This document shows positions 4,684 to 59,239 of a DNA stretch of 64,000 bases, piece after piece (positions within the stretch are counted from its first letter, which is position 1; each line of letters begins with the position of its first letter). The stretch comes from Candidatus Enterousia sp. (GTDB taxonomy: Bacteria > Pseudomonadota > Alphaproteobacteria > Rs-D84). Where the stretch lies: NCBI GenBank assembly GCA_045612805.1, contig JAZKZR010000010.1, positions 67,136-131,135 on the forward strand, written 5' to 3'. A model generated the notes under the pieces. It had not been told where the DNA came from, did not search any database, and saw only the letters and a list, made by a program, of their open reading frames with translations. Position numbers and translations under genes: made by a program.

Positions 4684-5919
4684 ATGAAAAAAATTTTAGT
4701 CGTTTTATGTTTGTATGCTATCACGGCTCCAACTTATTCCGCAACGAATTGCGTAATGATCACGCCTACCCGCGGCGAAGATACTACTACAGGTGCCTGG
4801 ATCCAAAGAACTTCTACGTATGATTATTATTACTGTGGTGAGCATACTGGGGACGATTATGGTTGCCCCAACGCTGTTGATATTTATACAAATTTTGGTC
4901 CAAGTGGTCCAGGTTTCTACACGTGTTATTCTAATATCCCCAAGTGGTCATTTGTTGAACCTACACGTTGGATTGCTGATTGTGCAAATGACCCTGTGAC
5001 AGACCGTAATGCACGTGATGAAGTTGAAGGAGATCCGGACGATTATGTGTTCTTTTATAATTATGATGTCGGTGAAAGTGCAAAAAATATATGTAAATTT
5101 TCACGAAGCGAACTTGAATCTTACACGGCGGATTGTGAATCGACTGGCGGTGAAAAAAATTTTTACAGATATCGCTGTTTGTGTTCAGATCCATACGAAA
5201 ATGATGGTCCATATAAATGTAAACCAAAATCAAAATTTAATTATAAATCCTGTTCGTCTGATTCTGATTGTACGGGCATAGATAACACAGTGCGGCCGTA
5301 TTTGCATTCGACGGCGTGGCACTGTGCGTGGCAAAGTGCGGGTGTGCGTGTTTGCACCGCAACCGCGTGTGAATCGGGGTGGACGCCGATAAATGGATAT
5401 TGCCAGGAAGATAAAAACATCCAAACACCGCAATCCGAAAATAAAAATGCCAATTCGGTATCCAATATCAAAACCGAAACGAAAGCGGGCACAAAGAAAC
5501 CCTGTACTGATTTGGATAATATGGATTCGAATTGCAAATGCATTGTTGCGGGAACTGTGGAACGTAACGGAACATGTGTTTGTTCGGATTCCGACAAAGA
5601 AATCAAAAATGGCAAATGCGAATGGACGGCAAAATATGTGGCGGGTTTGGAAAGCGACCTGGACAGCAAATTTAACGGTTTAACCGCAACGATTGGTGGG
5701 TTCGAAAAGAATGTTTGGCGTGATGAAAACGGCGAATTTAACACCGCGCGCCTTGCGTCGGACAGTATTGCGGGTGTTGTTTTGGGGACCGTTGGCGGAA
5801 TTGTGACGTCAAACCTTGTCAAAAAGGCCCAGGTTAAACAGGGCTTCGAAGACATCGGTTGCTATATCGGCGGTCAATCCGTCGCCGGCTATGGCGATGA
5901 ATTTAATGTCGGACGCTAG
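4684..5919 (+). CDS. Secreted cysteine-rich protein (411 aa, about 40 Cys) with signal peptide
   Basis: N-terminus MKKILVVLCLYAITAPTYSA preceded by the RBS ggggggtaggtatg. Cys-rich modules (CxC, CxxC spacing) run throughout, and the C-terminus is Gly-rich. No enzyme motif was found. Confidence 0.55.
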   Translation: MKKILVVLCLYAITAPTYSATNCVMITPTRGEDTTTGAWIQRTSTYDYYYCGEHTGDDYGCPNAVDIYTNFGPSGPGFYTCYSNIPKWSFVEPTRWIADCANDPVTDRNARDEVEGDPDDYVFFYNYDVGESAKNICKFSRSELESYTADCESTGGEKNFYRYRCLCSDPYENDGPYKCKPKSKFNYKSCSSDSDCTGIDNTVRPYLHSTAWHCAWQSAGVRVCTATACESGWTPINGYCQEDKNIQTPQSENKNANSVSNIKTETKAGTKKPCTDLDNMDSNCKCIVAGTVERNGTCVCSDSDKEIKNGKCEWTAKYVAGLESDLDSKFNGLTATIGGFEKNVWRDENGEFNTARLASDSIAGVVLGTVGGIVTSNLVKKAQVKQGFEDIGCYIGGQSVAGYGDEFNVGR

Positions 5920-5952
5920 TTCCCTCAAATGGGACATCACTTTCGCTGTGTA

Positions 5953-6882
5953 TCAAATCCGTGAAAAGTTTTTTTGAATTATCTTTCCGCTTTTGCGCAG
6001 TGCCGCCGATTCCGCCGGTGACATTTTTGGCGCCAATGTCGCAACAACACCGTTCGCGCCAACAATGCGTGGCAAAGACATTGCAATCACATGTGCGCCC
6101 GTGCCCGTGACGATTGATACAGTTAAAATTCTGTGCTCGTCATTTATGATGCACTTTATCAAATCTGCAACCGCGGCGCCGATTCCGTCCCATGTTGCGC
6201 CACGCCCGCGAATAATTTCATACGCCGCATTGCGAACGTGTTCTTCGATACTGGTGCGAATTGTGGCGGTCAGTGGAATTTTCACCTGGCGACAGAAATC
6301 ATCCAACGACAGTCCGCCAACCGTAATCGACGACCAATCAATAACACTGGCGTCGCCATGTTCGCCAAGGACATAGGAATGAATCGATTGCGGCGACACG
6401 GCAAGTCCCCGTGCCAATATCGTACGCAAACGCGCACTGTCCAACATTGTGCCGGTTCCAATCACGCGCGCCGGCGGCAATCCCGAAATTTCCTGGGCCA
6501 ACATAACCATTACATCCAACGGGTTCGTCACGATAATTAAAATTACACGTTTTGAATCAACGTTCGCCATCACGCGCGGCACAATATCGCGAATAACCGC
6601 GGCATTGTTTTGCAATAAATCTGTCCGTGTTTCGCCGGGCTTTTGATTCTTGCCGGCGGCAATAATAACAATGTCCGAACCACGAATTGCGCGATAATTA
6701 CTGGCCGCGGAAATGTTCACATCAAAACCAAAACTTGCCGCATGACCCAAATCTTCGGCGGCGGCACGCGCCCGCACCGCATCGCGGTCAAACAAAACAA
6801 TTTCATGCACAAGTCCCGTATTCTTTACCGCCGTCGCAACGGCCGAACCAACGGTCCCCACACCAATAATCGCCACTTTCAT
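5953..6882 (-). CDS. ldh: L-lactate dehydrogenase (LDH/MDH family, Gln at the substrate-specificity position)
   Basis: MKVAIIGVGTVGSA Rossmann fold. The AGKNQKPGETRTDLL motif (Q-type, LDH-like) and GTGTMLDSARLR are present. Confidence 0.75.
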   Translation of the reverse strand: MKVAIIGVGTVGSAVATAVKNTGLVHEIVLFDRDAVRARAAAEDLGHAASFGFDVNISAASNYRAIRGSDIVIIAAGKNQKPGETRTDLLQNNAAVIRDIVPRVMANVDSKRVILIIVTNPLDVMVMLAQEISGLPPARVIGTGTMLDSARLRTILARGLAVSPQSIHSYVLGEHGDASVIDWSSITVGGLSLDDFCRQVKIPLTATIRTSIEEHVRNAAYEIIRGRGATWDGIGAAVADLIKCIINDEHRILTVSIVTGTGAHVIAMSLPRIVGANGVVATLAPKMSPAESAALRKSGKIIQKNFSRI

Positions 6883-6916: not shown

Positions 6917-6998
6917 TAGTGGCAAGTGTTAGTGATTAGTGTAAGTAAAAAAACACGGGCGCAACCGCGCCCGCACTAACACTAATCACTTACCACTA
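6917..6998. repeat. Palindromic intergenic element family 2 (gtgttagtg...cactaacac arms)
   Basis: tagtggcaagtgttagtgattagtg ... cactaacactaatcacttaccacta forms a long imperfect palindrome with a GC-rich centre. Related copies are at 52448-52540 and 56626-56746. It lies between the ackA stop and the ldh start. Confidence 0.7.
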
Positions 6999-44867: not shown

Positions 44868-45056
44868 ATGAGCAAATTTTTTCGTGGTGGATTCTTTGCG
44901 AATCGCCGAACACAAATAATGACCGCATGTGGAATTATGTCTGCGTTGTGTGCATACCTTGTTGGCGATTCGGATCTGTTTGCCACAATCCAGGCATTGA
45001 TCGCCGTTGGCGGTGTTTATCTGTTGCATAAAACAAATCAACAAAAAGGAAAATGA
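44868..45056 (+). CDS. Small membrane protein (62 aa)
   Basis: RBS acgggggcaacatg. One TM helix. Located between the hydrolase and the phage scaffold gene (holin-like position). Confidence 0.35.
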   Translation: MSKFFRGGFFANRRTQIMTACGIMSALCAYLVGDSDLFATIQALIAVGGVYLLHKTNQQKGK

Positions 45057-45057
45057 A

Positions 45058-45714
45058 ATGGAAAAAGTACCAGAAAAATTTTTAAACGAAGATGGAACAT
45101 TAAACAGTGACGCATTGATAAAATCATACAACGAACTTGAAAAAAAGATTGGCGGAATGATAACAGTGCCGGATGAAAAATCTGACGAATCGGTGCGAAA
45201 CCGCTTTATGCGCGCGATTGGTGTTCCCGAAAGCCCCGATGAATATCCACATAATGAATTGTTTGATGATGAAAATGTGCGCAAAGAATTTCATAAAATT
45301 GGTTTAACAAATTCGCAGGTTGAAAAAATTTATAACATTGCACAAGAATTTTTATCGCCAATCATATCTGAAATTTTTACGACACAACAAGAAGCAGATG
45401 CAATATCAAAATTAAAAAATTTTTTTGGTGGTGAAGAAAAAATGCATAATGCATTTGTTGCAATAAAATCATTTGGCGAAAGATTTTTACCCGTTGACGC
45501 GTTTAATGAATTATGCTCTACACCCCAAGGAATTCAAGGTGTTTACAAGATGATGCAATCAATGGAACCGCATGTAGAAACGGAAGGTAATGCACCGGAA
45601 AAATTATCTGAATCTGATTTGCGAGACATGATGCGCGATCCAAAATATTGGCGCGATCATGATGCAGAATACATTCGCAAAATTGAAAACGGTTTTAAAA
45701 AATTATATTCGTAA
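45058..45714 (+). CDS. Phage capsid assembly scaffolding protein (T7 gp9-like)
   Basis: RBS aaaaaggaaaatgaaatg. Acidic, helical, 218 aa. Immediately upstream of a T7-gp10-like capsid gene. Assignment is mainly by synteny. Confidence 0.45.
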   Translation: MEKVPEKFLNEDGTLNSDALIKSYNELEKKIGGMITVPDEKSDESVRNRFMRAIGVPESPDEYPHNELFDDENVRKEFHKIGLTNSQVEKIYNIAQEFLSPIISEIFTTQQEADAISKLKNFFGGEEKMHNAFVAIKSFGERFLPVDAFNELCSTPQGIQGVYKMMQSMEPHVETEGNAPEKLSESDLRDMMRDPKYWRDHDAEYIRKIENGFKKLYS

Positions 45715-46160: not shown

Positions 46161-46334
46161 TCGTAAAATTTTTCAGTCAGATTTGATCGGTCTGACTGAA
46201 TTTTTTTACTTGGATAATCCGGTATTCCGGACCCGTTTAATTTTGTTCTTTGGCGCATACGTGCATAACCAGAAAACAATTTTTGGTTCGGTGAATTTTT
46301 TCATCATGTATAACGTTTAACAAAAGGAATAATA

Positions 46335-47153
46335 ATGTCTGTTTCCATAGATCAAGTATTTGTGAAACAATTCGAAGCCGATGTCCATTTGGCTTATCAA
46401 CAGATGGGCACCAAATTGCGTTCAACCGTGCGCAGCAAATCCGGTGTTGTTGGCAAATCTACAACATTTCAAAAAATCGGTAAAGGCACCGCCAGTACAA
46501 AATCCCGTCATGGAATTGTGCCGGTTATGAATCTGAATCATGAACCTGTGGAATGCAATTTGCAAGATTACTATGCGGGTGATTGGGTTGATGCGTTGGA
46601 TGAATTAAAGGTCAATATTGATGAGCGCCGTGTCGTTGCGTCCGCGGGTGCGTATGCATTGGGGCGTAAAACTGATGAATTGATTATCAATGCGATGACC
46701 GCAACAACCCAGAATTCTGGTGATTATTCGACAGGCCTGACCAAGGCGATTGTTTTGGGTGCATTGGAAAAATTAAATGAAAATGATGTACCGGATGATG
46801 GTCGCCGTTTTGCGGTTGTTGGTGTAAAACAATGGAACGAATTGCTTGCCATTGATGAATTTTCATCCGCGGAATATGTTGGGGATGATTTGCCATTTAT
46901 TAACGGTGGTGAAGTCAAAAGATGGCTTGGCATTACATGGTTGATGCACAACGGTTTGCCGTTGTCTTCGTCAACGCATCGCGATTGCTTTATCTATCAT
47001 GCATCTTGCATTGGTCATGCGTGTGGGCAAGAAGTGAAAACCGATATTTCGTGGCACGGTGAACGTGCGGCGCACTTTATTAGCAACAGTATGTCCCAAG
47101 GCGCGGTGCTGATTGATAACAGTGGAATTGTCCGTCTTAAGTGCGGCGAATAA
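46335..47153 (+). CDS. Phage major capsid protein (T7 gp10-like)
   Basis: 272 aa. Segment-by-segment resemblance to T7 gp10A recalled from memory: QFEADVHLAYQQ...RSKSG..GKSTTFQKIG versus FGGEVLTAFARTS...SISSGKSAQFPVLG. The C-terminal GQEVKTDIS...AVLIDNSGIV resembles T7 AVGTVKLRD...AAGAVVF. RBS aaaggaataataatg. Confidence 0.65.
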   Translation: MSVSIDQVFVKQFEADVHLAYQQMGTKLRSTVRSKSGVVGKSTTFQKIGKGTASTKSRHGIVPVMNLNHEPVECNLQDYYAGDWVDALDELKVNIDERRVVASAGAYALGRKTDELIINAMTATTQNSGDYSTGLTKAIVLGALEKLNENDVPDDGRRFAVVGVKQWNELLAIDEFSSAEYVGDDLPFINGGEVKRWLGITWLMHNGLPLSSSTHRDCFIYHASCIGHACGQEVKTDISWHGERAAHFISNSMSQGAVLIDNSGIVRLKCGE

Positions 47154-47177: not shown

Positions 47178-47411
47178 ATGGCTTTTCAAAACAAAAATTT
47201 GTCGGTAATTGCATATGCAAATGGGTTCACGTTGTGGCACTATGTTGAAAGCGCAACATTGGCAACAATCACGGCAAGCGGTTATTTCGATGCGGTGGCA
47301 ACACTTATGAACAATGGTGATATTGTTATTATCAATGGTTCGGACAAAACATCGATAAAGAAAATCGCGGTTAGTGATGCCGGCGTTGTGACGACCGCCA
47401 CATTGGACTAA
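47178..47411 (+). CDS. Small phage structural-module protein (77 aa), function unknown
   Basis: RBS agaggaaaaacaatg. Located between the capsid and gp11-like genes. Confidence 0.4.
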   Translation: MAFQNKNLSVIAYANGFTLWHYVESATLATITASGYFDAVATLMNNGDIVIINGSDKTSIKKIAVSDAGVVTTATLD

Positions 47412-47488
47412 GGTTGATTATTGTTTGCAAAAATATAGGGCCGATTCTTTTCGGCCCTTTTTTCAATTTTTTAGAATAGGGGAAAATA

Positions 47489-48007
47489 ATGCTAACGAAA
47501 ATAGATTTGTGTTCTATGGCATTGTTGAAATTGGGTGAAAATCCGATTCAATCTTTGTCAGATGATACCGCGGCGGCAAAACTGGGACGAACGCTTGTTG
47601 ACTTTGTCATAGACACATTATTGGCAATGCATCCGTGGCGGTTTGCGTGTCGCACATATAATATCATACGTAACGAAAACGGAGATTTTATTATACCATC
47701 GGATGTGTTAAGGGTTATAAAAACCAACGGTAAAATTATCGGAAATCAAATTATATCCAATACAGATACCTTAAACCTGGTGGCCATAGTTCGTGTGACA
47801 CCGGATGTTTTCCCAAGTTATTTCGCATCACTTGTCGCGACAAAACTTGCGGTGGAATTTTGTATGCCGCTTATTTCCGATCAAACGGTATTCAGAACAT
47901 TGGTTGCACTTTATGAAAACGAATTACAAACCGCAAAATTTATAGACAGCACAACATCGGTGAATACGGGGATAGAAAATTTTTCATTGATAGATAGTCG
48001 TTTTTAA
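47489..48007 (+). CDS. Phage tail tubular protein A (T7 gp11-like)
   Basis: 172 aa. N-terminal ...LCSMALLKLGENPIQSLSDDTAAAKLGRTL...HPWRF parallels T7 gp11 ...[34 protein letters not shown]...RGWTF, recalled from memory. Confidence 0.55.
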   Translation: MLTKIDLCSMALLKLGENPIQSLSDDTAAAKLGRTLVDFVIDTLLAMHPWRFACRTYNIIRNENGDFIIPSDVLRVIKTNGKIIGNQIISNTDTLNLVAIVRVTPDVFPSYFASLVATKLAVEFCMPLISDQTVFRTLVALYENELQTAKFIDSTTSVNTGIENFSLIDSRF

Positions 48008-48028: not shown

Positions 48029-49732
48029 ATGGGAAATTTTATAAAAACCGAGAAATCTTTTACTAATGGTGAAGTTTCAATAAACTTTTTTGAAAACGAT
48101 GATATCCAAGGCCTTAGGTTTATGGAAAATTTTGATGTGTGTGCGGGTGGTGGCCTTGTGCGGCGGCCTGGTCTAAAAAAATCCACACAATTGATTTCTG
48201 ATGCAAGATTGGTATCTTTTTCATTATCGGAATCCCAAGAATATATTTTGGCAATGATGAACGGACGCATAAGAATTTATGCGAACAATACTTTCGTGCA
48301 AGATGTATTAACACCATGGCCAAGTTCCGTGATTCCGAAATTACAATACACGCAACGTTTTGGCACAATGATATTTGTGCATCCAGATTACGCGCCAATG
48401 GTTTTATATTACGAAAATGGGCTTTTCAAAATTAAAAATTTCACTTTTTCAAAATCGCCGGATACCGGGAATTTGCAAATACCCTTTATGCGATTCGAAG
48501 ATTCCGAAGATGTCACAATAACCATAACAAATTCGGGTGGCATCACACATTTCATAGCAAGTGAAGATTTTTGGACCCAGAATAATGTTGGTGGGCATTT
48601 GTTTGCAATTGGAAAAAGTTGGTTGGTAAATTCGTATGTAAGTGCCACAGATATAACGGTAATATGCAACGGCACATATACAATACCGAATGACCCAATT
48701 TCAGATTGGCAAGAAGCCGCGTTTAGTCCACGTCGCGGTTGGCCATCATCGATAACTTTTCACCAAGATAGGTTGGTTTTTGGTGGTGCTAAATCATGGC
48801 CGGGTGGAATATGGTTGTCGCATGTTGGTGGGCACAGAAATTTTGACCCTGGGACCGGATTGGATGACGAAGCAATATTTTTCACACTATTGTCAGACCA
48901 CAGACAGCATGTTTGCACACTGGTCAGCAGTGATAATTTACAGATACTTACATCCGAAGGGGAATGGGCGGTTTCCAACAAACCACTTACCCCAGAATCA
49001 GTCGATATAAAAACGCATACATCGATTGGCAGCCCCGCGGACAGATATCTTGCGCCACAACAAATCGAAGGCAAAACTATATTCGTCGCAAAAAATAAAG
49101 AAATCCGACAACTGTGTCTTGATAGTTTGGGCGAAAATTACGATGCCAACAATTTATGTGCATTTGCCGAACATTTGATAACGAACCCCGTCGATATTTC
49201 TTACAATAAAAACAATAAAAAACTTTTTGTTGTTATGTCTGATGGAAATATGGCGGTATTGAATTATGACACATCGCACGGAATATCTGCTTGGGGACGA
49301 TACACAACGGATGGAAAGTTTACATCAACCACAACGTACGATGACAAAACATTTGTCGTTGTAAAACGTGGTGACGATTTTTTCCTTGAATATTTTGATG
49401 ATTCAGAATTCGTTGATGCAGATAGTCACACATACACCGCGACGGCATACGGATTACCACTTTTAACATCGGGACATAATGCAAAATATATCAGAATCAC
49501 AAAAATAACAGTTCGCGTTTATAATACCAAGACATTATTCATAAACGATGAACGGGTGGTTTTGCCAAACGATGTTTATTCCGATGATTCGGTCGGGTTC
49601 AGTGGTGATGCATCTATAAATGTATTGGGAACAAGTGCAGATTTAATTGATGCGCCATGGAAAATTTCTACGACAGACAATTTGCCATTAAAAATATTGT
49701 CGGTGACAATATACGGAAGATATCAAATATAA
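48029..49732 (+). CDS. Phage tail tubular protein B (T7 gp12-like), shortened
   Basis: 567 aa. ITFHQDRLVFGG...LQILTSEGEWAVSNKPLTPESVDIKT resembles T7 gp12 VFFFRNRLGFLSG...LLIWSDEAQFVLTASGTLTSKSVELNLTT, recalled from memory. Confidence 0.5.
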   Translation: MGNFIKTEKSFTNGEVSINFFENDDIQGLRFMENFDVCAGGGLVRRPGLKKSTQLISDARLVSFSLSESQEYILAMMNGRIRIYANNTFVQDVLTPWPSSVIPKLQYTQRFGTMIFVHPDYAPMVLYYENGLFKIKNFTFSKSPDTGNLQIPFMRFEDSEDVTITITNSGGITHFIASEDFWTQNNVGGHLFAIGKSWLVNSYVSATDITVICNGTYTIPNDPISDWQEAAFSPRRGWPSSITFHQDRLVFGGAKSWPGGIWLSHVGGHRNFDPGTGLDDEAIFFTLLSDHRQHVCTLVSSDNLQILTSEGEWAVSNKPLTPESVDIKTHTSIGSPADRYLAPQQIEGKTIFVAKNKEIRQLCLDSLGENYDANNLCAFAEHLITNPVDISYNKNNKKLFVVMSDGNMAVLNYDTSHGISAWGRYTTDGKFTSTTTYDDKTFVVVKRGDDFFLEYFDDSEFVDADSHTYTATAYGLPLLTSGHNAKYIRITKITVRVYNTKTLFINDERVVLPNDVYSDDSVGFSGDASINVLGTSADLIDAPWKISTTDNLPLKILSVTIYGRYQI

Positions 49733-49751: not shown

Positions 49752-50096
49752 ATGGGACAAATTATTTCAGATGTTACAGATATTTTGAATTATAAAGAAA
49801 ATAAAAATGCGGCCGAAAAAAACAAAAAAAAGATTTTATCAGATATTGCATCGGACGAAGTAGAAAAACAAAACATTGTGAAAAAAGTGCTTGCCATGCA
49901 ACGCGCAAAATACGGCGCATCCGGCATGTCGGCCAATGGAATAACGGAAAAAAATGTTATGCACAGGTTGCAACAGGAAATCGAAACCCCGTATGACAAT
50001 AAAATAAAAACAAACATGGCAAAATTAAATAGTATCGGCGTAAAAAAGAAAAATATGCTGACATCAATTTTGGAACACCTGGATAAACTGGTTTGA
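49752..50096 (+). CDS. Hypothetical phage protein (114 aa); position suggests terminase small subunit
   Basis: RBS aagaggtataaaaatg. Lys-rich and helical. Sits immediately upstream of the terminase large-subunit fragment. Confidence 0.3.
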   Translation: MGQIISDVTDILNYKENKNAAEKNKKKILSDIASDEVEKQNIVKKVLAMQRAKYGASGMSANGITEKNVMHRLQQEIETPYDNKIKTNMAKLNSIGVKKKNMLTSILEHLDKLV

Positions 50097-50695
50097 AAAC
50101 CATGAATCAATACAATGAATTTTTGGATTCTTGGAATCATGTATTGGGATATGAAACGCCGGCGCATCACCGTGATATGATGAATTTTTTAACAAGTGTA
50201 ATCACCGGCGATTCGCACCGGGGGTTGCTTATGGCGTTCCGTCATTCAGGCAAATCAACAATTGTCGGAATTTTTGCCGCGTGTGTATTATATCGGCGAC
50301 CCGAAACACGGATTTTGATTTTATCCGCGGAAACACATTTGGCAACAAGGATGGTTATGCATATTCGCAATGTTTTGGAAAATCATCCTTGGTGTGCGGA
50401 TATGATTCCAAAAAATAAACGCGAATGGGCGGAAAATAAAATAACCATAAACCGCCCCATCGGAATTCGTGAACCATCCGTTGTTTGCCAAGGCGTTTAT
50501 GGCAACATCACCGGTATGCGTGCGGATTTAATAATATGTGACGATGTCGAAGTTCCAAATACTTGTAATACAATAAAAAAACGGGCCGGTCTGCGCGACA
50601 GATTGCGCGAACTGGATTTTATCCTGTCACCAAATGGAACGATGATTTATATTGGAACGCCACACACACTGGATACAATATACCGAATATCTTAG
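50093..50695 (+). pseudogene. Terminase large subunit, N-terminal ATPase fragment (T7 gp19-like), terminated after motif C
   Basis: Walker A LLMAFRHSGKST, Walker B LIICDDVE, motif C IYIGTP, then a TAG stop. The nuclease domain is absent here and found at 54064-54927. Confidence 0.6.
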
Positions 50696-51345
50696 GCCGC
50701 ATCATGCGACGGCATAGAACTAAGCAACCCGTGTAAACGGTGCAACATCTTTTTGCCTTCATCACCAAACATTGGTAAATACGTTTCATATTCCGGCATG
50801 TCTACCTGCAGATTTGCGCGTGCGCGTTCGGTAATGGGTTTAGATAATACATCGTTCGCGTTGTCCCACATACGATAAGCCGTGGCCGCGCGAACAATAT
50901 CATCAAATTTTCGTAATGCTTCGGGATTGTTGAACAATGCGTTTTTGGACCGCGACACCCAATCGTCACCGAATTTTTTAATGATCGGATTCGCCATGAA
51001 TCGATTTATGCCATCAAGATCTGGGTTAAACGAATCAATTGCCGAAATCAATTGCTGTAATTCATCATCCGCCATGTCTGATGCATCCGCAGATTCATTC
51101 ATCATGCCACCATACGGCAACAATTCGCGCGCAATAGAATCCATTGGTGTTGTGCCGTCACGTAAATTTTTAATATGTTGAATCAACATTTTTCCGGTGG
51201 GTAAATCTTGCAATTCGTGCAAAATCTCATCGGTTGCTTCGTCAACAAAAACACGATTCACTGCGCGCCATCCACCGACGATAACATGCGCCTGGCGATA
51301 AAGATTCAAAAGTTTTTGTGCAATAACACTTGCCCTTGCTTTCAT
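50692..51345 (-). CDS. Hypothetical protein (217 aa) within the block inserted in the terminase gene
   Basis: ORF on the opposite strand to the phage structural genes. No domain recognised. Confidence 0.4.
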   Translation of the reverse strand: MKARASVIAQKLLNLYRQAHVIVGGWRAVNRVFVDEATDEILHELQDLPTGKMLIQHIKNLRDGTTPMDSIARELLPYGGMMNESADASDMADDELQQLISAIDSFNPDLDGINRFMANPIIKKFGDDWVSRSKNALFNNPEALRKFDDIVRAATAYRMWDNANDVLSKPITERARANLQVDMPEYETYLPMFGDEGKKMLHRLHGLLSSMPSHDAA

Positions 51346-51371
51346 CCCGATTATTCCCCCGCGGTGGTGTT

Positions 51372-52382
51372 TTATTCGGCCAAAATCATTATAACCTTGT
51401 GCATTGTCGGCGCAGAAATCTTTTCATCGGGCGAAACCATTTGACCATAAATTTTGCCCTTGGAATCTTTACGCACAACGGCGATATTGGCGGTTGTTTT
51501 TTCCTCGGACTTTAGCGAATTAAATTCCGCATCAACGAAAACAGCCAAATCACCCGGAACAACGTTTGCCTTTGCATCCGCAAAAACATATGATTTTTCC
51601 GGTATAAATCCGCCCAAGCGTTTAGAATTAGGAATGACCGCATATACATTACGACGACCTTCAAGATTTGCCGGTGCGGCAATCATTTTTGATTCAGACC
51701 GTACAAAACTCATAACCTTGCCATCGGGCCGCCCAAACACAGGAATCAATTTACGCCGCGCATTATCATAAAGTTTTGCACCGTACAAATGCCCATGCGT
51801 TTCATCAAAATCATTGGACGAATCACCTGGTACCAAAACGGCCTGAACACGTTCTTTGACCTTGTTCATCTGTTTGGTAAGTTCGCCAGATTTATAAAGT
51901 TCGGCAATTTTATCAAACAAACTTTCGACAGAATGTGCAAAAGATTTTGCCAAAGGTTCAATTTCGTTTTTATAAACCTCGCGTTGACCAACCTCTATCT
52001 TATGATACACCGAAAGTGTCATGCCGGCATCTTTGGCGGCCTGGGCAATTGTTTTGCCAGATTGTTGACGTATTTTGCGCAATCCGGTACCAAACACCTT
52101 AAGACCACCGTCTTCGTTATCATTCATACGACGGGTAATTTCATTTTGCCATTTTGACGCAACCTCGTCAGTGTCTTTGATGAAAATATCGGACAATTTG
52201 CACCCCAAGATGTTGCAGATATTCAATAACTGTTTCTGATTAAGGCGACGAACACCCTTTTCAATCTTGGAAACAGCGGACAGCGATAAATTCGAACGCC
52301 GTGCCAGTTCGGTCATTTTCATACCAGTGGCAAGACGTATATTACGAATATTATTCGGAAAAATGATTTCTTCTTGGGCCAT
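51372..52382 (-). CDS. XRE-family transcriptional regulator with tandem HTH domains and a C-terminal LexA/CI-like beta domain
   Basis: Start MAQEEIIF with canonical RBS aaggag(6)atg. Two HTH_XRE-like segments (IRNIRLATGMKMTELARRSNLSLSAVSKIEKG; LRKIRQQSGKTIAQAAKDAGMTLSVYHKIEVG). The C-terminal domain is CI/S24-like but has no clear Ser-Lys dyad. Confidence 0.55.
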   Translation of the reverse strand: MAQEEIIFPNNIRNIRLATGMKMTELARRSNLSLSAVSKIEKGVRRLNQKQLLNICNILGCKLSDIFIKDTDEVASKWQNEITRRMNDNEDGGLKVFGTGLRKIRQQSGKTIAQAAKDAGMTLSVYHKIEVGQREVYKNEIEPLAKSFAHSVESLFDKIAELYKSGELTKQMNKVKERVQAVLVPGDSSNDFDETHGHLYGAKLYDNARRKLIPVFGRPDGKVMSFVRSESKMIAAPANLEGRRNVYAVIPNSKRLGGFIPEKSYVFADAKANVVPGDLAVFVDAEFNSLKSEEKTTANIAVVRKDSKGKIYGQMVSPDEKISAPTMHKVIMILAE

Positions 52383-52447
52383 AAAAAACTCCTTGGGTAA
52401 ATCTTGACAAAATGATAAGCGATTTTTTGAATTATGGCAAGGAAAAA

Positions 52448-52540
52448 GTGATAGAGTGTTAGTGGTTAGTCGTTTCTGGAATAAATTCGCAATTACAAGA
52501 TAATTCCAGAAATTACTAACCACTAACACTAGCCACTATT
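52448..52540. repeat. Palindromic intergenic element family 2 copy (with nested ttctggaat...attccagaa inverted repeat)
   Basis: gagtgttagtggttagtcg ... ctaaccactaacactagccacta arms flank a tctggaataaattcgcaattacaagataattccaga core. Lies between the regulator start and the dnaB stop. Confidence 0.7.
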
Positions 52541-54089
52541 ATTCGAATTCATCTGGAATTTCATCAATATCAATCGACATTGGGGCGTCGACCGGTTCGG
52601 CAACTGGCGGCATATCCGGTGCAAATTCTACACCGCGTCCCGCCATTTCGCCAAGGTTGTCGAACAAACTATATTCCGCCAAGAATGCGACCGTGACCGT
52701 ATCCGTTCGGCCGTGACGGTTCTTGCCAATGATAATGTCCGCCTTGCCCTTGGCCTTTTCAAGCCGGTTTTGCCACGAATCGACGGACTTTTCACTTGGC
52801 GTATTTGAAAGTCGCCGTGACGGGTCACGATTTTGCAGATAGTATTCTTCACGATATGTGAACATAACAATGTCGGCGTCTTGTTCAATTGAACCTGATT
52901 CACGCAAATCGGCAAGTTGTGGCCGTTTATCATCACGATTTTCAACACTGCGCGACAATTGCGACAGGGCGATAACCGGGACATTAAATTCCTTGGCCAT
53001 CATTTTAAGGCCACGCGTGATTTCGGACAATTCTTGAACACGATTGTCGCTGCGTTTCCCGCCCGGCAAAGTCAGTAATTGCAAATAATCGATAACGATA
53101 AGTGCAATGCCATTATATTTCCGCGCAAGACGCCGCACCCGCGTGCGAATCATCGGCAAAGACATGCCAGGCGTATCATCAATGAACAACGGAATCCGCC
53201 CGATTGCATCTGAAAACTGGGCCATTTTAAGGAAATCTTCATCCGTTAGTGAACCTTCACGCATTGCGGAAGACGGAATTCGTGCCTGGGAAGCCAAAAC
53301 GCGCGCCGCCAATTCAGACGCACCCATTTCAAGACTAAAAAACGCGACCGCGCCCTTATATTGTTCGTTCGCGCGACTGGAATAAATCGCATTCGCGGCA
53401 TTGAACGCGATATTCATGGCAAGCGTGGTTTTACCCATACCCGGACGACCCGCGATAATAAGCAAATTTGATTTATGCAAACCACTTATTGCGCGGTCCA
53501 AATCGGTAAGTCCCGTGGTAAGTCCCGAAAGTTTTCCGTCCGCCTTGTATGCAATTTCCGCCTCACTCAGGGCATCTTTTAACGCGTTTGCAATCGGCAC
53601 GACATCGCGTGACGCATCGCCGGTCATTGCCAAATTGAACAATTTTTGTTCGGCGGATTCAATCTGTGACGACACCGGGTTATCAAGGTCTTCGACAAAC
53701 GCGGCATCGGTGACCGATTGCCCAAAATCGATAAGTTCGCGCCGCACCGCGTTTTCATGAACGATTCGACCGTATTGTTCGACATTTACAACGGTTGCGC
53801 CGGCACTTGCCAACTGGGTCAAATATTCAACGCCACCAACAGATTCCAATGTCCCTTGCTGGTCCAAATAGTTTTTTGCGGTGATTATATCAAACGGAAT
53901 TCCGGCGGCAAATTGGCGCAGGGCAAGTTTATAAATTTCTTGGTGCGCGGGATGCGAAAAATCTTCCGGTCGCAAAAATTCGGAAATTTTTTCAAGTGCC
54001 CGATTCTTCATTAAAACCGCGGCAAGAACGGCCTGTTCGGCCTCTAAATTCGTTGGCAAAGTTTTGGGAGTAAAGTCCATGTCAAACAT
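52539..54089 (-). CDS. dnaB: Replicative DNA helicase DnaB
   Basis: 516 aa. N-terminal domain LEAEQAVLAAVLM. Walker A GRPGMGKTT, SLEMG, Walker B LIVIDYLQL, arginine finger region IIGKNRHG. Acidic C-terminal tail. Confidence 0.85.
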   Translation of the reverse strand: MFDMDFTPKTLPTNLEAEQAVLAAVLMKNRALEKISEFLRPEDFSHPAHQEIYKLALRQFAAGIPFDIITAKNYLDQQGTLESVGGVEYLTQLASAGATVVNVEQYGRIVHENAVRRELIDFGQSVTDAAFVEDLDNPVSSQIESAEQKLFNLAMTGDASRDVVPIANALKDALSEAEIAYKADGKLSGLTTGLTDLDRAISGLHKSNLLIIAGRPGMGKTTLAMNIAFNAANAIYSSRANEQYKGAVAFFSLEMGASELAARVLASQARIPSSAMREGSLTDEDFLKMAQFSDAIGRIPLFIDDTPGMSLPMIRTRVRRLARKYNGIALIVIDYLQLLTLPGGKRSDNRVQELSEITRGLKMMAKEFNVPVIALSQLSRSVENRDDKRPQLADLRESGSIEQDADIVMFTYREEYYLQNRDPSRRLSNTPSEKSVDSWQNRLEKAKGKADIIIGKNRHGRTDTVTVAFLAEYSLFDNLGEMAGRGVEFAPDMPPVAEPVDAPMSIDIDEIPDEFE

Positions 54090-54927
54090 AGTATACGAAA
54101 AAAATGTTTTTTCAACGCCTTTTTTATCGGGTTATTCGGAATTGAAAATTCCAATAATTGACAGTGACGGAAACCCGGCGTGGCCGGCGGTTTTCCCAAT
54201 TGAAAAAATCGATAAAATCCGCAAAACCGTGGGCGAACGACATTTTTCGGCACAAATGATGTTGCAATATATCGCGCCCGATAAAATCCGCCTTGACCCG
54301 GGGGGAATAAAATTATATGACGCGGAATTTGATCCGCACGGGTGCCGAATTGACGAAATGCCAATAACCGGTGCGACAATATATTGGGATCCGTCGGGTG
54401 GGCGACGAAATTCGGATAACAGTGTTTGCGTGATTATTTATCGTGATGACCGAACGCATCGCGCGTTTATTCACGATATGATTTATTTGGTTGTCCCAGA
54501 CGAAGTTGAATATCCACTTGCATACCAATGTGAAAAGGTTTTGTCGTTTGTGCGCGCACACCGGCAAAGAACCCTTGCACTTGAAACAAACGGAATTGGT
54601 GCGGCGTTGCCGGAAATTATGCGTGAAACAATTGCGCGCGCGGGCTATGAAATACAAATCCGCCCGATAAGCAACAGCCACCGCAAAGAAGACCGAATCT
54701 TGGACGCAATCGAACCGTTGCTTACGACCGGGCGACTTTACGCGCATCGGCGCATAACGCAAACCCCGTTTATCTCGGAAATGTTGGCATGGACACCGAT
54801 TGGTGGCGGCGAACATGACGACGGATTGGACGCGGTTGCGGGGGCAATTTTATGTTCGCCCAGCCCCGTGCGTCCCATTGGAACAAACGTTCGCCCATTT
54901 ATCGCGAACACAGAATTCAAACTTTAA
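54064..54927 (+). pseudogene. Terminase large subunit, C-terminal nuclease-domain fragment (T7 gp19-like)
   Basis: IYWDPSGG...D.SVCVIIY (RNase-H-like nuclease Asp motif) and DDGLDAVAGAI (terminal Asp motif), parallel to T7 gp19 AGIDSQ... and NEALDCFVYALAA. In-frame continuation of the 50093-50695 fragment is impossible, because about 3.4 kb of opposite-strand genes intervene. Confidence 0.6.
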
Positions 54928-54942: not shown

Positions 54943-56169
54943 ATGAAATATGACTTACAACAAATGTATTCACATGCATTGGCTCTGCGCGAACCATGGA
55001 TTAAACGTTGGTCTGATGCGCGCCGTTACACTATGCCTACAACCGATGAAGAAATCGCGACACTGTTCGATGGAACAGCGGCGGACGCGGCAGATAATTT
55101 GGCGGCGTGTATGTATTCATTACTAACCCCGCCGGAATCATTGTGGTTGAACCTTATTCCGGAATCCGAAGATTCCCCGGATGCGGCAACGGCGACAATG
55201 GCATTACGTTCGAACCTAAACGAATCAAATTTTTATACAACGGTGCACCAATGTTATCTTGATTTGGTGACGGTTGGAACGGCGTGTCTGTTTATGTCCG
55301 AATCACCAATTGGCGCGGCAAGTGCGTTTAACTTTACCGCGATTCCGATGACGGATATTGCGATTTTGCCGAACGCGGTGTTTCACACGGCAACCATGAC
55401 CGCCCAAGAAGTTGCGCGCCGTTATCCCGAATGGACACCACCACACGCAATCCTTGACGCGATGAAGCAAAATCCGGAATACCAATTGCGCCTTGTTCAG
55501 GCATTGGTTGACACGGAATTCACCGCATGGATAGATGTCGGTGGCAATCTTGAAAACAACATTGTGTCGCGTGGCACATTTGAAACGAACCCATACATCA
55601 TATTCCGCTGGGCCGTGTCCAGTGGTGAACTGTACGGCCGCGGGCCGGTGCTGCGCGCGTTGCCCGATATCAAAACCGCGAACAAGGTCGTCGAACTTGT
55701 CCTAAAAAACGCAACCATCGCGGTCAGTGGCATATGGCAGGCCGACGATGATGGCGTCATAAACCTTGGCAACATAAACCTTACCCCGGGTGCAATTATA
55801 CCCAAAGCGGTGGGCAGTACCGGCCTTACACCACTTGCAACGGGTGCAAATTTTGATGTGTCGCAAATAATTCTAAAAGACCTGCGCGAACGCATCCGCC
55901 ACACAATGCTTGCGGACAGAATCGGCACACTTTCGGACAAAGAAATGACCGCAACGGAAATACTTGCGCGGAATGCGGACATGTTGCGTATATTGGGCGC
56001 GACATATGGACGATTGCTGCACGAATTTATCCGGCCGCTTTGCGACCGCGGATTGCAAATCCTTGCACGGCGCGGGGTAATCGACAAAATATCACTGCAC
56101 AGTGACGCGGAATTAAAATACATTGCCCCGATTGCACAAATGGTCGCGGAAAACGGAACATTGATATAG
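54943..56169 (+). CDS. Phage portal/head-to-tail connector protein (T7 gp8-like), shortened
   Basis: 408 aa. AACMYSLLTPPESLWLNLIPESE / YLDLVTVGTACLFMSE parallel T7 gp8 LASKLMLALFPMQTWMRLTISEYE / LKQLVVAGNVLLYLPE, recalled from memory. RBS aaaggaagaaaaatg. Confidence 0.55.
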   Translation: MKYDLQQMYSHALALREPWIKRWSDARRYTMPTTDEEIATLFDGTAADAADNLAACMYSLLTPPESLWLNLIPESEDSPDAATATMALRSNLNESNFYTTVHQCYLDLVTVGTACLFMSESPIGAASAFNFTAIPMTDIAILPNAVFHTATMTAQEVARRYPEWTPPHAILDAMKQNPEYQLRLVQALVDTEFTAWIDVGGNLENNIVSRGTFETNPYIIFRWAVSSGELYGRGPVLRALPDIKTANKVVELVLKNATIAVSGIWQADDDGVINLGNINLTPGAIIPKAVGSTGLTPLATGANFDVSQIILKDLRERIRHTMLADRIGTLSDKEMTATEILARNADMLRILGATYGRLLHEFIRPLCDRGLQILARRGVIDKISLHSDAELKYIAPIAQMVAENGTLI

Positions 56170-56385: not shown

Positions 56386-56629
56386 TGGATTCGCAAACAT
56401 CATCGACACATTACGCAGTGGTTGGTTCATTATCGCGTTTATTGCGGGCATGATATATTGGGTGGCGCGCCAAGATAACGCCCTGGTCGAACTTGACCGA
56501 TTGACGACACGCATAACGACACTTGAAAATCGCACAACGATTTTGGAAACCGGAATAGGGCAATTGCAATTAAAAATCGACGGCATCAAAGAAGACCTGA
56601 CCCTTATCAAAACCGCAGTGATAAAGTAG
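56372..56629 (+). CDS. Small membrane protein with coiled-coil (85 aa), phage module
   Basis: Start MPKSNGF. One TM helix (WFIIAFIAGMIYWV), then a coiled coil. Confidence 0.35.
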   Translation: MPKSNGFANIIDTLRSGWFIIAFIAGMIYWVARQDNALVELDRLTTRITTLENRTTILETGIGQLQLKIDGIKEDLTLIKTAVIK

Positions 56630-56746
56630 TGTTAGTGGGAAATGCAAGTGGTTAGTGTTAGTGTGTCCTGGAATAACTTCGAGATTACGGATTGATTCCA
56701 GAAGACGACTAACCACTATCCACTAACACTTACCCCTACCCACTAA
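56626..56746. repeat. Palindromic intergenic element family 2 copy marking the right end of the phage-like module
   Basis: agtgttagtgggaaatgcaagtggttagtgttagtg ... cactatccactaacacttacccctacccacta with nested cctggaata...attccagaag. Abuts the yraN stop. Confidence 0.7.
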
Positions 56747-57087: not shown

Positions 57088-57885
57088 TTAAAACGCATAC
57101 GGTTTCGCGGCAAAGTTATCTTGGGAATGTTGCGCGTTAAGGGCGCTGTCTTCCGTATGTTTGCCACAATCAATCAATTCCAATTCGCCCGAATACGCCG
57201 TCATCATCGGGTCAAAAGAATTATCCGAACTTGCCCAACGCGAATTACCAGCATTTGGTGCACCGTATTTATCAACAACATTTTGCCACCAATACATTGT
57301 TTTTTTGTCGCGTTGATTTTCGAATTTTTCCGCGTCGCCCTCTATTTCATCTGTGTCATTTCGATATACGATTTTCCACACGACATTATCGGTTGCGTTG
57401 CTTGTGAAAAACACATCAATCGTTTCGCCCGTGACATCCCGCACCAAGTGCAATTCCGACGCATACAAAACCCCACGATTCCGCGCAAGTGAATTTATAC
57501 ATTTTTCCAACGCCGCCGGTGCATAGATTTTCTGTTGCCGGCATTCGTAATCAAGATTATATTTCCAATCCGGGTGTATCGAATACACAACACTATTTTT
57601 CGGCCGTTCGGTATAAAGCCCATCGACGGCGGCGATAAATTTAACCTCGTCAAAATCCATACCCAACATTATCCCCGCAATATCAAAGTCCGCAACCGGC
57701 AACACCGTCGCACCGGCATTCAATGACATCGTATCCAAACTGCACTCAATATCACCCGTATCCGGCGTTTCGATATAGTAATCATCAAAATTGATATTTT
57801 CATCGGCCAATACATCATCAAATTCATCCGCGCGCGCGCAGATTGAAAGCAAACATACAAAAATTCCAACAATAATTTTTTTCAA
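57088..57885 (-). CDS. Secreted hypothetical protein (265 aa) with signal peptide
   Basis: MKKIIVGIFVCLLSICARA signal peptide. Acidic. No domain recognised. Same strand and operon as the VirB8-like genes. Confidence 0.5.
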   Translation of the reverse strand: MKKIIVGIFVCLLSICARADEFDDVLADENINFDDYYIETPDTGDIECSLDTMSLNAGATVLPVADFDIAGIMLGMDFDEVKFIAAVDGLYTERPKNSVVYSIHPDWKYNLDYECRQQKIYAPAALEKCINSLARNRGVLYASELHLVRDVTGETIDVFFTSNATDNVVWKIVYRNDTDEIEGDAEKFENQRDKKTMYWWQNVVDKYGAPNAGNSRWASSDNSFDPMMTAYSGELELIDCGKHTEDSALNAQHSQDNFAAKPYAF

Positions 57886-57887
57886 CT

Positions 57888-58541
57888 TTATTTCTCTTCG
57901 ACCAAGACCCGTTGCACATTGAACACAAACACCAACGCCGGATCAATACCATCTTTTAATGCCCCGTGAACATCGCCTTCGCGGACATTGCCGATACTGT
58001 TTACCCAATCATCATCGCCCAAATCAAGATACATTGTTCCACGCGTTATCTTTGGACTTTCCGACATGTCATTTGGTTTATACCATGTTTTAAGTTCATA
58101 ATCAACCCGCCAATAATTACTTGACGCCGGGCGATAGATTTCATTAAACACCGTCACCGTCCGCCGCGCGCCATTTGCAACCAAACCTTCTATTTCCGGC
58201 AATTCATTTTGCCGCCAATAATCAAACGCCGCCGTCCCCGACATTCGCGCCAGTGTTGACCGCCGCGTTGTCCGTCGCGCAATGTTTTCTTCGTCCGGCA
58301 CGGCATAAAAGTATTCCGTCACATATTTTTGAACAAGCCAATCGCGCAACTTGCGTTTTCCAACCTCGGCCCAGGAATGCGGCATGCCGGGCAAATCGTT
58401 AGATTGAATACTGGTGCGTAAAAAACGCGGTTCAACGGCAAACCGTTCGGACGTATCATAAATCGACGCGGCAACATAAATCGCGCCAAAGACCATAATC
58501 ATGGTCGCAAATCCGAACAAAAATCCAAAAAGTTTCTTCAT
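57888..58541 (-). CDS. Bitopic membrane protein, VirB8/DotI-like (T4SS inner-membrane component), paralog 1
   Basis: 217 aa with an N-terminal TM helix and a periplasmic domain. The C-terminal DPALVFVFNVQ resembles the VirB8 NPxG-LVVTSYQ end motif. Weaker than paralog 2. Confidence 0.4.
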   Translation of the reverse strand: MKKLFGFLFGFATMIMVFGAIYVAASIYDTSERFAVEPRFLRTSIQSNDLPGMPHSWAEVGKRKLRDWLVQKYVTEYFYAVPDEENIARRTTRRSTLARMSGTAAFDYWRQNELPEIEGLVANGARRTVTVFNEIYRPASSNYWRVDYELKTWYKPNDMSESPKITRGTMYLDLGDDDWVNSIGNVREGDVHGALKDGIDPALVFVFNVQRVLVEEK

Positions 58542-59239
58542 TACTGTTCCCTGAACGCGTTAAATTCCGTCACATAAAACCCAAGTGTTTGCGGATACCG
58601 TTCCACATCACGCGCGATTTTTACATACGCAATCACATCAAAATCGCCGTTCAAATTCGACCGCACCGACGTCCGCACGACCCAGGTTCCGCCATCTTTG
58701 GTTATTTCACCACTGGGCATAACACTAATTTTTTTCGTATCAACATACCAACGTTGCCCCATAGATTCATACGACCGATACATCGGCAAAACCTTTTCGG
58801 TAAAGGAATGAAACATATTGTCGCCCGCCATACAATATAAATCGCAACCGGCATCCGATTCAAAAGTGTTGCTTATGCGGTCGGCACAATCGGCACCCCG
58901 ATTACACGTCGCCCAATTTTTTGCATTCAATGTCGGGTTATCGGAAATAGTGAACCATTTTTTCGTAAAAATCCCGGCCAATGCACGCTGGGCGGAATCA
59001 TAATACGGCACAACGATATTCGGCCGAACCTGGCCCACCAATTGCCAATTCCCGCGCATACCATCAACATAAATCACATACGGACTAACGGTGCGACTGT
59101 TTTGCAACCACGGTATCGCAACACAGCATGCGATGGTCAAAAAGAACGCAACCATCACCCACACACCAAACGTGCGGGAAATCGCAATCCGTTTCCCTGC
59201 GGGAAATGCGGGCGTATCAAAATCTTCTGGGTAATCCAA
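58541..59239 (-). CDS. Bitopic membrane protein, VirB8-like (T4SS component), paralog 2
   Basis: 232 aa. Cytoplasmic N-terminus, a TM helix, then PYVIYVDGMRG (compare VirB8 PVYLWIRPDGT), GTWVVRTSVR (compare TWTATVRYE) and C-terminal YPQTLGFYVTEF (compare NPGGLVVTSY). Comparisons are to A. tumefaciens VirB8 recalled from memory. Confidence 0.5.
   Translation of the reverse strand: MDYPEDFDTPAFPAGKRIAISRTFGVWVMVAFFLTIACCVAIPWLQNSRTVSPYVIYVDGMRGNWQLVGQVRPNIVVPYYDSAQRALAGIFTKKWFTISDNPTLNAKNWATCNRGADCADRISNTFESDAGCDLYCMAGDNMFHSFTEKVLPMYRSYESMGQRWYVDTKKISVMPSGEITKDGGTWVVRTSVRSNLNGDFDVIAYVKIARDVERYPQTLGFYVTEFNAFREQ

Follow-up and report, generated by a model that had tools for sequence, protein, structure and literature searches.

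The large terminases of tailed phages are regarded as single-chain motors. In Bacillus subtilis, the sigK gene is divided by an excisable element, skin. The integrase gene of SSV1-type elements is split when the element integrates (PMC6563490), and terL, the gene for the large terminase, is fragmented by group I introns and homing endonucleases in the Jug jumbo phages (PMC12880540) and contains inteins in mycobacteriophages (PMC5050341). Here, we consider a terL gene that is divided in another way. It lies in a stretch of 64,000 nucleotides, from here on called the window (contig JAZKZR010000010.1, positions 67,136 to 131,135). The source is an alphaproteobacterium of the Candidatus Enterousia type that lives in the gut or rumen; the literature assigns Enterousia, with a genome size of about 0.75-1.0 Mb, to the uncultured order Rs-D84 (PMC12306168). 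When terL is interrupted by introns or inteins it is also fragmented, but the interruption lies on the same strand and is removed at the level of RNA or protein, so that one chain is restored, whereas in Enterousia the two parts of the gene, TerL-N and TerL-C, are separated by 3.4 kb of cellular genes on the opposite strand. Elements of the skin and SSV1 type bring a recombinase and att repeats, and the divided gene is restored by excision, but none of this was found at the Enterousia split. In the literature searched, neither the Enterousia cluster nor a terminase divided by genes of the cell is described.

The phage-derived genes around the split resemble the gene transfer agents (GTAs) of Alphaproteobacteria. 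Like RcGTA and BaGTA, they constitute a chromosome-fixed cluster for head, tail, packaging and lysis, which is inherited vertically, is under purifying selection and lacks genes for replication and integration. RcGTA, however, is built from HK97-type siphovirus parts, while the Enterousia cluster has podovirus parts (capsid PF19821, T7 gp8-type portal PF12236, T7 scaffold, tubes A and B) and a split terminase. The cluster shares with the GTA class that it is phage-derived, integrase-free, chromosomal and vertically inherited, and its particles are predicted from the genes. A conserved regulator with two helix-turn-helix (HTH) domains is embedded in it. The nearest cultured phages are pelagiphages, with a capsid protein 47% identical to that of Pelagibacter phage EXVC031P and 33% identical to that of HTVC010P. 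T7-type terminases are closest to the split TerL by sequence as well as fold (8dgc, 4bij), and the TerL proteins of T7-like podoviruses are about 28-35% identical to it. HTVC010P and the T7-like phages differ from the cluster in that they are autonomous viruses of 32-40 kb with replication genes and a single-chain TerL. Judged by its genes, the cluster reads as a domesticated, vertically inherited particle cluster of podovirus-like (T7/HTVC010P-type) origin. The reading that we favour, with a probability of about 0.65, is that the split is ancient and kept by selection, and that a two-piece terminase is part of this domesticated cluster, which is a candidate GTA.

TerL-N and TerL-C are consecutive parts of one T7-type terminase, since they match successive stretches of the same profiles. 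In the NCBIfam model termin_lrg_T7 (NF033889), TerL-N covers positions 2-189 of 500 and scores 225.6 bits (cut-off 150), and TerL-C covers positions 329-500, where it alone gives 107 bits, under the same cut-off, which is set for a full-length protein. In PHROG 38 (large terminase), TerL-N takes profile positions 273-458 and TerL-C positions 481-705, and TerL-C passes the cut-offs of PF22530 (35.6 bits, cut-off 27) and PF17289 (32.3 bits, cut-off 22.6). A preliminary description of the locus had proposed a T7-type large terminase split into two open reading frames (ORFs) on the same strand with little loss of sequence, and had allowed that the two fragments might be unrelated proteins. The frames lie where it placed them, the consecutive matches to one profile speak against unrelated proteins, and an alignment with intact relatives of 463-503 aa shows that the halves abut with no residues missing. 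TerL-N ends with '...GTPHTLDTIYRIS' and a stop codon, and TerL-C starts with 'MSNIVYEKNVFSTPFLSGY...', where the intact proteins read '...GTPHTxDTIYxTxxxGFLxGF...'. At the break the halves show at most a resemblance of 3-4 residues (TIY/IVY), which could be a small duplication. The stop of TerL-N at 50695 was also given correctly, but the nuclease does not resume at 54064: the ATG of TerL-C is at 54079, and the T7-type RNase-H-like nuclease domain is seen by Pfam only from about residue 106 of the mechanical ORF, roughly 100 residues inside TerL-C.

In all loci examined, the two activities are not carried by a single polypeptide, but by two ORFs at a distance of 3.4 kb, both of which have a start and a stop of their own. 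Walker A, Walker B and motif III (GKST, LIICDDVE, GTPH) are invariant or nearly so across 78 TerL-N loci, and the nuclease motifs YWDP, ETNG and HDDGLDA are conserved in TerL-C together with the catalytic D/E/D residues. At its gathering threshold, Rfam finds three tRNAs and no intron in the window, and the alignment to intact relatives leaves no room for intein halves at the ends of the fragments.

The break had been placed at the boundary between the ATPase and nuclease domains, and this placement is not upheld. When compared with solved T7-type terminases (8dgc, 4bij), TerL-N ends near residue 212-220 of a 586-aa protein. In an AlphaFold2 model of the intact relative P0075 (predicted local distance difference test score 86.4), the motif III strand at residues 175-184 is followed by an ordered loop (185-205), a strand (206-210), helices (227-246) and the nuclease domain from about residue 264, and Foldseek matches about 250-280 columns of the model with isolated ATPase domains, those of T4 gp17 and P74-26 TerL. 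Since a further strand and helices thus come after the break, the split falls inside the ATPase domain: by the model, the break is in the loop just after motif III, about 65 residues ahead of the nuclease domain, a position with which the profile matches agree. TerL-C would accordingly contain, in P0075 numbering, the further strand (206-210) and the lid helices (227-246) as well as the nuclease domain.

At both ends of the 3.4-kb block, terL overlaps with a gene of the opposite strand. To the left, the TAG stop of TerL-N (50693-50695) overlaps the TTA stop of the convergent 217-aa gene (50692-50694) in the sequence TTAG, and this 4-nt stop/stop overlap recurs in most loci; the TerL-N tail beyond the conserved DTIY varies in length and sequence, also at the DNA level. 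To the right, the ATG of TerL-C (54079-54081) overlaps a Met codon of dnaB (54080-54078) in the palindrome CATG. This start/start overlap is present at every locus surveyed, while the upstream dnaB Met at 54089 is not conserved. The Shine-Dalgarno sequence of TerL-C, a purine-rich GGGAG or variants of it, lies at 54066-54070, 8-9 nt 5' of the ATG and within dnaB codons 3-5. Together with the ATG it is found at every locus surveyed, and it survives synonymous change in dnaB. In both genes, the entropy at third codon positions has its minimum at the overlap, with 0.35 in codons 9-21 of the TerL-C mechanical ORF against a gene mean of 1.42, and about 0.7 in dnaB codons 1-10 against a gene mean of 1.28. 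This indicates that the overlap is constrained at the level of DNA.

Just upstream of dnaB, in TerL-C codons 4-16, there is a sigma-70-like sequence TTGAAA-16-TACTAT on the minus strand (54115-54088), which is likely to be the dnaB promoter, placed inside terL-C. A scan of the window for promoters and terminators gave chance levels (34 promoters with 31 expected, 18 terminators with 20 expected), and among the promoter sites scanned only this one is backed by conservation across species.

How old is the split? To appreciate the sampling, note that the species survey used one genome per species (GTDB representatives), that 255 genomes contained a relative and that the 80 best loci among these genomes were examined. 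These have TerL-C identities of 54-98% and come from samples of cattle, goat, sheep, yak, buffalo, deer, horse, chicken and human gut; many of them are named Candidatus Enterousia, and one, L037, is a circular chromosome of 958,618 bp with the split arrangement. Mapping by tblastn gave one and the same order wherever the contig was long enough: capsid, tube A, tube B, a 114-aa protein (p114) and TerL-N, then the 217-aa, regulator and dnaB genes on the minus strand, and then TerL-C and portal. The gene order on metagenome contigs is equal to that of the species-representative loci. A separate search with the joined TerL halves against about 5.8 billion proteins gave many stand-alone proteins of 279-288 aa, 56-91% identical to TerL-C, in alphaproteobacterial metagenome-assembled genomes (MAGs), often on long contigs (up to 354 kb), while the full-length terminases in the same search were only 39-44% identical to the joined halves. 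The surroundings of two of these stand-alone proteins (69% and 59% identity) have the layout of the window, including the minus-strand block.

If contigs had been wrongly joined at 50696 and 54063, an error that the preliminary description had considered, the split would be an artefact. Apart from the unusual layout nothing points in this direction, and the same junctions are present in assemblies made independently of one another, from cattle, goat, yak, deer, horse, chicken and human samples, as well as in the circular long-read chromosome, so that the probability of an assembly artefact is close to nil.

Consider, next, the possibility that a recent insertion or a recombination between repeats has disrupted the terminase of a prophage, with the halves left as pseudogene fragments. 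In favour of this, the block runs opposite to terL and differs slightly in composition from its surroundings. Yet the block is present with identical junctions in all informative loci among the best 80 species-level genomes, none of 78 TerL-N and none of 85 TerL-C sequences has a stop within its frame, and both halves are under strong purifying selection. The ratio of non-synonymous to synonymous divergence (dN/dS; Nei-Gojobori, median over pairs with dS < 1) is 0.053 for TerL-N and 0.095 for TerL-C, at a level similar to that of DnaB (0.045) and BamA (0.042). For the other genes of the locus it is 0.062 (capsid), 0.045 (portal), 0.076 (tube A), 0.093 (tube B), 0.058 (HTH regulator) and 0.078 (217-aa protein).

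A recent insertion would also find some support in the palindromic repeats of one family that are seen in the block and after the phage module, just as previously described. The repeat occurs at three sites of the window, 6925 (6925-6940), 52455-52530 and 56628-56730, with 7 matches to its pattern where 0.15 are expected, and the hairpin has a folding free energy of -45.4 kcal/mol (z = -10.9). The family appears to be one of hairpins scattered in the genome, similar to repetitive extragenic palindromes and miniature inverted-repeat transposable elements. The rearrangement by way of these repeats that had been suggested fails, however, on their positions, which are away from the junctions, and on the spacer between dnaB and the regulator, which contains the repeat in some relatives only and has a length of about 78 to 604 nt, depending on the locus. 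The repeat was added later, is variable and leaves the split unexplained. A target-site duplication, another mark of insertion that had been proposed for the break points, was looked for without success: there is no exact repeat but only a resemblance of 3-4 codons, ACAATATAC (50675) against ACATAGTATAC (54085), or TIY/IVY, which is indistinguishable from shared ancestry of the loop. With neither recombinase nor transposase in the block, and with a dnaB of host type, recent disruption is extremely improbable.

The split has, instead, been passed on with the chromosome. In pairwise comparisons, the divergence of the phage-derived proteins is correlated with that of DnaB and BamA with r = 0.8-0.88, the gene for a biotin/lipoate ligase is present upstream wherever the flank reaches that far (32 loci), and yraN and bamA recur downstream. 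That divergence tracks that of DnaB and BamA and that the flanking genes recur argues that the cluster has been inherited vertically at a fixed chromosomal site. Capsid and portal proteins even evolve more slowly than DnaB and BamA, as the slopes of divergence are smaller than 1, and among loci the capsid protein is 80-96% identical.

The three minus-strand genes of the block, including a full-length dnaB and an XRE-type regulator, are as first described, in that ORFs and domain matches agree. DnaB has its N- and C-terminal domains at full length and scores 597.6 bits with NF006606 (cut-off 540) and 504 bits with TIGR00665 (cut-off 385), whereas the exception model phage_DnaB gives 410 bits, under its cut-off of 498.65. 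Because the equivalog for replicative helicases was passed and phage_DnaB failed, the protein looks like the helicase of the cell itself. The regulator gene is taken as 51372-52382 rather than as the mechanical ORF 51372-52529, since relatives annotate 335-336 aa. Its C-terminal part of about 130 aa is without domain match, and an S24/LexA-like domain was detected neither by Pfam nor by BLASTP against the S24 protein adjacent to the related cluster L085 nor by a PDB sequence search, so that the former label 'CI-like' is not shown to apply. The regulator also has a sub-threshold likeness to the male-killing Wmk family of Wolbachia phage WO, whose members have two HTH domains as well (E = 5e-6, 26 bits, cut-off 300).

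The third gene encodes a protein of 217 aa with 1096 homologues, the best 120 of which have lengths of 211-229 aa and no Pfam domain. It is predicted to be all-helical, it gave no meaningful fold match and it is not recognisable as a recombinase. Nor was any recombinase or transposase found in the block by Pfam, PHROGs, NCBIfam or fold search. This bears on a further explanation, by which the 3.4-kb block is excised in a programmed manner, as in skin/sigK, in producer cells on their way to lysis, so that terL is rejoined while dnaB and the regulator are lost. If the two near-matching sites at 50675 and 54085 were joined at their shared I-x-Y codons, the frame would be preserved and TerL would have its normal length, and the loss of dnaB could be tolerated by a terminal producer cell. 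But besides the lack of a recombinase, for which the all-helical 217-aa protein does not qualify by fold, a DNA repeat that is present at both junctions and conserved between species is missing, the TerL-N tail is variable, and TerL-C keeps a conserved Shine-Dalgarno sequence and ATG of its own. Moreover, the matches from the 5.8 billion proteins include no fused TerL of the Enterousia type, although rare events could remain. All in all, programmed excision is very improbable.

In other alphaproteobacterial MAGs the gene is undivided. At three loci (L085, L086, L087) they carry compact T7/BPP-1-like clusters, 10-12 kb in length, whose TerL is intact (469-495 aa) and shares 39-43% identity with the two halves when joined. 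Their genes are arranged in a T7-like manner in the order portal, Bbp19, scaffold, capsid, tube A, nozzle, small genes, TerL and Hydrolase_2, and many similar entries of 10-13 kb are found in IMG/VR (loci L088-L134). They share with the Enterousia cluster the families (PF12236, Bbp19, T7 scaffold, PF19821, tube A, nozzle, T7-type TerL and cell-wall hydrolase), the size of about 10-12 kb, the lack of integrase and replication genes and the flanking host genes. They differ in that TerL is single, portal comes first and TerL last, and dnaB, the histone-like gene and the 217-aa gene are missing. Of the three, only L085 and L087 are adjoined by an S24 LexA-like gene. By sequence comparison, these clusters display the ancestral, one-gene state of terL. 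Since the same families occur in another order in relatives, the Enterousia cluster derives, by rearrangement, from a compact podovirus-like cluster. A path from the portal-first order was sought, but more than one step is needed and it is not resolvable. The compact clusters in these MAGs and in IMG/VR, of about 10-12 kb, form a widespread family, which may itself be GTA-like and undescribed.

In the favoured reading, a single rearrangement in the common ancestor of the lineage put a host segment with dnaB, the regulator and the 217-aa gene, inverted, into the terL gene, at a surface loop of the protein after motif III. The two pieces were kept from then on as separate genes with intact catalytic motifs: TerL-N gained a new stop, and TerL-C a start and a Shine-Dalgarno sequence of its own within the first dnaB codons. 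Most probably, the two chains would then reassemble non-covalently to the full ATPase fold with its nuclease, and the reassembled terminase would drive DNA packaging into proheads that contain the portal, so that the cluster would be a GTA-like particle system, in which particles would be produced and genes may be transferred.

Four observations weigh against this account. Firstly, a break inside the ATPase fold makes reconstitution harder than a split at a domain boundary. Secondly, tail fibre, internal core proteins and a recognisable small terminase were not found in the window. Thirdly, neither the promoter scan nor the entropy profile detected a conserved promoter for TerL-C and portal inside dnaB. 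Fourthly, the cluster is dispensable in some lineages, since L030 (~5700-6700) and L055 (~4969-6700) carry deletions of the 3' part of the capsid gene, the tube genes and the 5' part of terL-N, with a truncated portal in L055, while the 217-aa gene, the regulator and dnaB are kept. The last case looks like a natural loss of particle genes, and agrees with the view of the cluster as accessory, assembled around a gene that is essential.

It may also be argued that the halves are conserved for separate functions, with TerL-C as a stand-alone nuclease, TerL-N as an unrelated ATPase or regulator, and the capsid in a role apart from DNA transfer, perhaps that of a protein compartment or of a bacteriocin-like particle. 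When the split is inside the ATPase fold, reconstitution is not guaranteed, tail fibre and small terminase are not recognised, and TerL-C evolves faster than TerL-N, with identity ranges of 54-98% and 69-92%, respectively. Against separate functions stands that ATPase motifs and catalytic residues of the nuclease are all invariant or nearly so, that the portal, to which a terminase docks, is among the most conserved genes, and that the divergence of TerL-N is correlated with that of TerL-C (r = 0.78). We regard separate functions as unlikely, though as a serious alternative.

The phage-derived genes, as assigned by Pfam and PHROGs, extend from about 44.4 to 56.6 kb of the window, or over roughly 12 kb (Table 1), and Pfam, PHROGs and NCBIfam found no integrase, phage polymerase or primase among them.

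Table 1. Positions in the window of the genes and repeats of the Enterousia cluster, with the matches by which they were assigned
Feature	Position	Strand	Basis and remarks
Endolysin-like (cell-wall hydrolase-like), 136 aa	44439..44849	+	phrog_938 endolysin E = 2.5e-6; module left end
62-aa hydrophobic protein	44868..45056	+	no family match; 62-aa gene at same position in L001 and L003
T7-type scaffolding (capsid assembly) protein	45055..45714	+	PF05396 Phage_T7_Capsid, 41.9 bits (cut-off 27.1)
Lysine/alanine-rich histone-H1-like (HC2-like), 93 aa	45832..46113	+	PF07382 HC2, 60.6 bits (cut-off 40)
Major capsid protein	46335..47153	+	PF19821 E = 6e-76; phrog_3437
77-aa protein 3' of capsid gene	47178..47411	+	phrog_18004 E = 4e-12
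Tail tubular protein A-like	47489..48007	+	phrog_394 tail protein E = 1e-29; weak PF17212 Tube
Tail tubular protein B / nozzle-like	48029..49732	+	phrog_376 tail protein E = 1e-80; L085 homologue with faint Phage_nozzle match
114-aa protein (p114)	49752..50096	+	weak internal-virion-protein match, phrog_418 E = 0.0017; kept in 75 loci
TerL-N, 200 aa	50093..50695, probable ATG 50102	+	NF033889 and phrog_38 (positions in text)
217-aa all-helical lineage-specific protein	50692..51345	-	no family match
Double-HTH (XRE-family) regulator, 336 aa	51372..52382	-	HTH_3 x2, E = 2e-18
Palindromic intergenic repeat (hairpin), dnaB/regulator spacer	52448..52540		arms 52455-52482 and 52503-52530, 93% complementary
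dnaB, full length (516-aa ORF)	52539..54089, conserved Met 54080-54078	-	NF006606 equivalog (score in text)
TerL-C, 282 aa	54079..54927 (mechanical ORF 54064-54927, 287 aa)	+	PF22530/PF17289; phrog_38 (positions in text)
T7-type portal (head-to-tail connector)	54943..56169	+	PF12236 E = 6e-82
Bbp19-like small phage protein	56179..56385	+	PF25181, 47.1 bits (cut-off 25)
Membrane/coiled-coil protein, 85-91 aa	56354..56629	+	weak spanin/XhlA-like matches (phrog_739, PF10779); module right end
Palindromic repeat, second copy	56626..56746		directly beyond module

At the two ends of the module, the genes of the window have counterparts in L001, where a 136-aa gene at the same position matches the endolysin-like gene and an 85-aa gene takes the position of the membrane/coiled-coil protein. 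The 62-aa hydrophobic protein is possibly a holin, and the 77-aa protein possibly a decoration protein. The HC2-like gene, situated between scaffold and capsid, has AAKKPAAKK repeats, HC2 being a chlamydial histone-H1-like nucleoprotein; a gene of 97-104 aa is found in the same position in L001 and L003, and is missing in the three clusters with intact terminase. Its product might condense DNA in connection with packaging, or else be a nucleoid protein of the host. Strong terminator-like hairpins at 46172-46200 and 47437-47458 bracket the pair of capsid and 77-aa genes, which suggests that capsid expression is under separate control within the cluster.

Many relatives, among them L003 (at 5522-6070), L004, L027 and L028, have a further gene of about 182 aa between p114 and terL-N, which is missing in the window, and the N-terminus of its product resembles the N-termini of phage tail-fibre and tail proteins (phrog_1640, E = 7e-9). 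Beyond the module, between yraN and bamA, three conserved genes of 265, 217 and 232 aa occupy 57088-59239 on the minus strand, syntenic in L001 and L002, the 232-aa protein with a weak VirB8-like match. A replication terminus at the junction was also considered, as the GC skew flips sign near 50.5 kb; since the skew simply tracks the coding strand over the whole window, nothing is inferred from it.

The notion of an ancient, selected split in a candidate GTA can be taken further, to a more speculative proposal that we consider decidedly unlikely in its entirety. In this proposal, the cluster would be an undescribed podovirus-type GTA of gut Alphaproteobacteria with reduced genomes, its packaging ATPase would be built from two chains within the ASCE fold, and its late genes would be interlocked with dnaB and the regulator, such that antisense transcription couples commitment to particles to a shut-down of replication. 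Transcription of the particle genes would run antisense over dnaB and the regulator, because the starts overlap, the putative dnaB promoter lies in terL-C and there is no terminator between terL-N and the block that converges on it.

If the two-piece terminase is real, a split of the ATPase fold that is kept throughout a lineage amounts to a natural experiment in how a packaging motor is built, with the outcome that the fold tolerates two chains. The cluster may, further, represent a new, podovirus-derived type of GTA in uncultured gut and rumen bacteria with genomes below 1 Mb. These bacteria keep about 9 kb of phage-derived genes that evolve at the slow pace of DnaB and BamA, which implies that the genes are of real use, for example in the exchange of DNA during genome reduction. 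Finally, the nesting of the essential dnaB within the cluster, with overlapping starts, offers a testable case of regulatory interlocking between a core gene of the host and domesticated viral genes.

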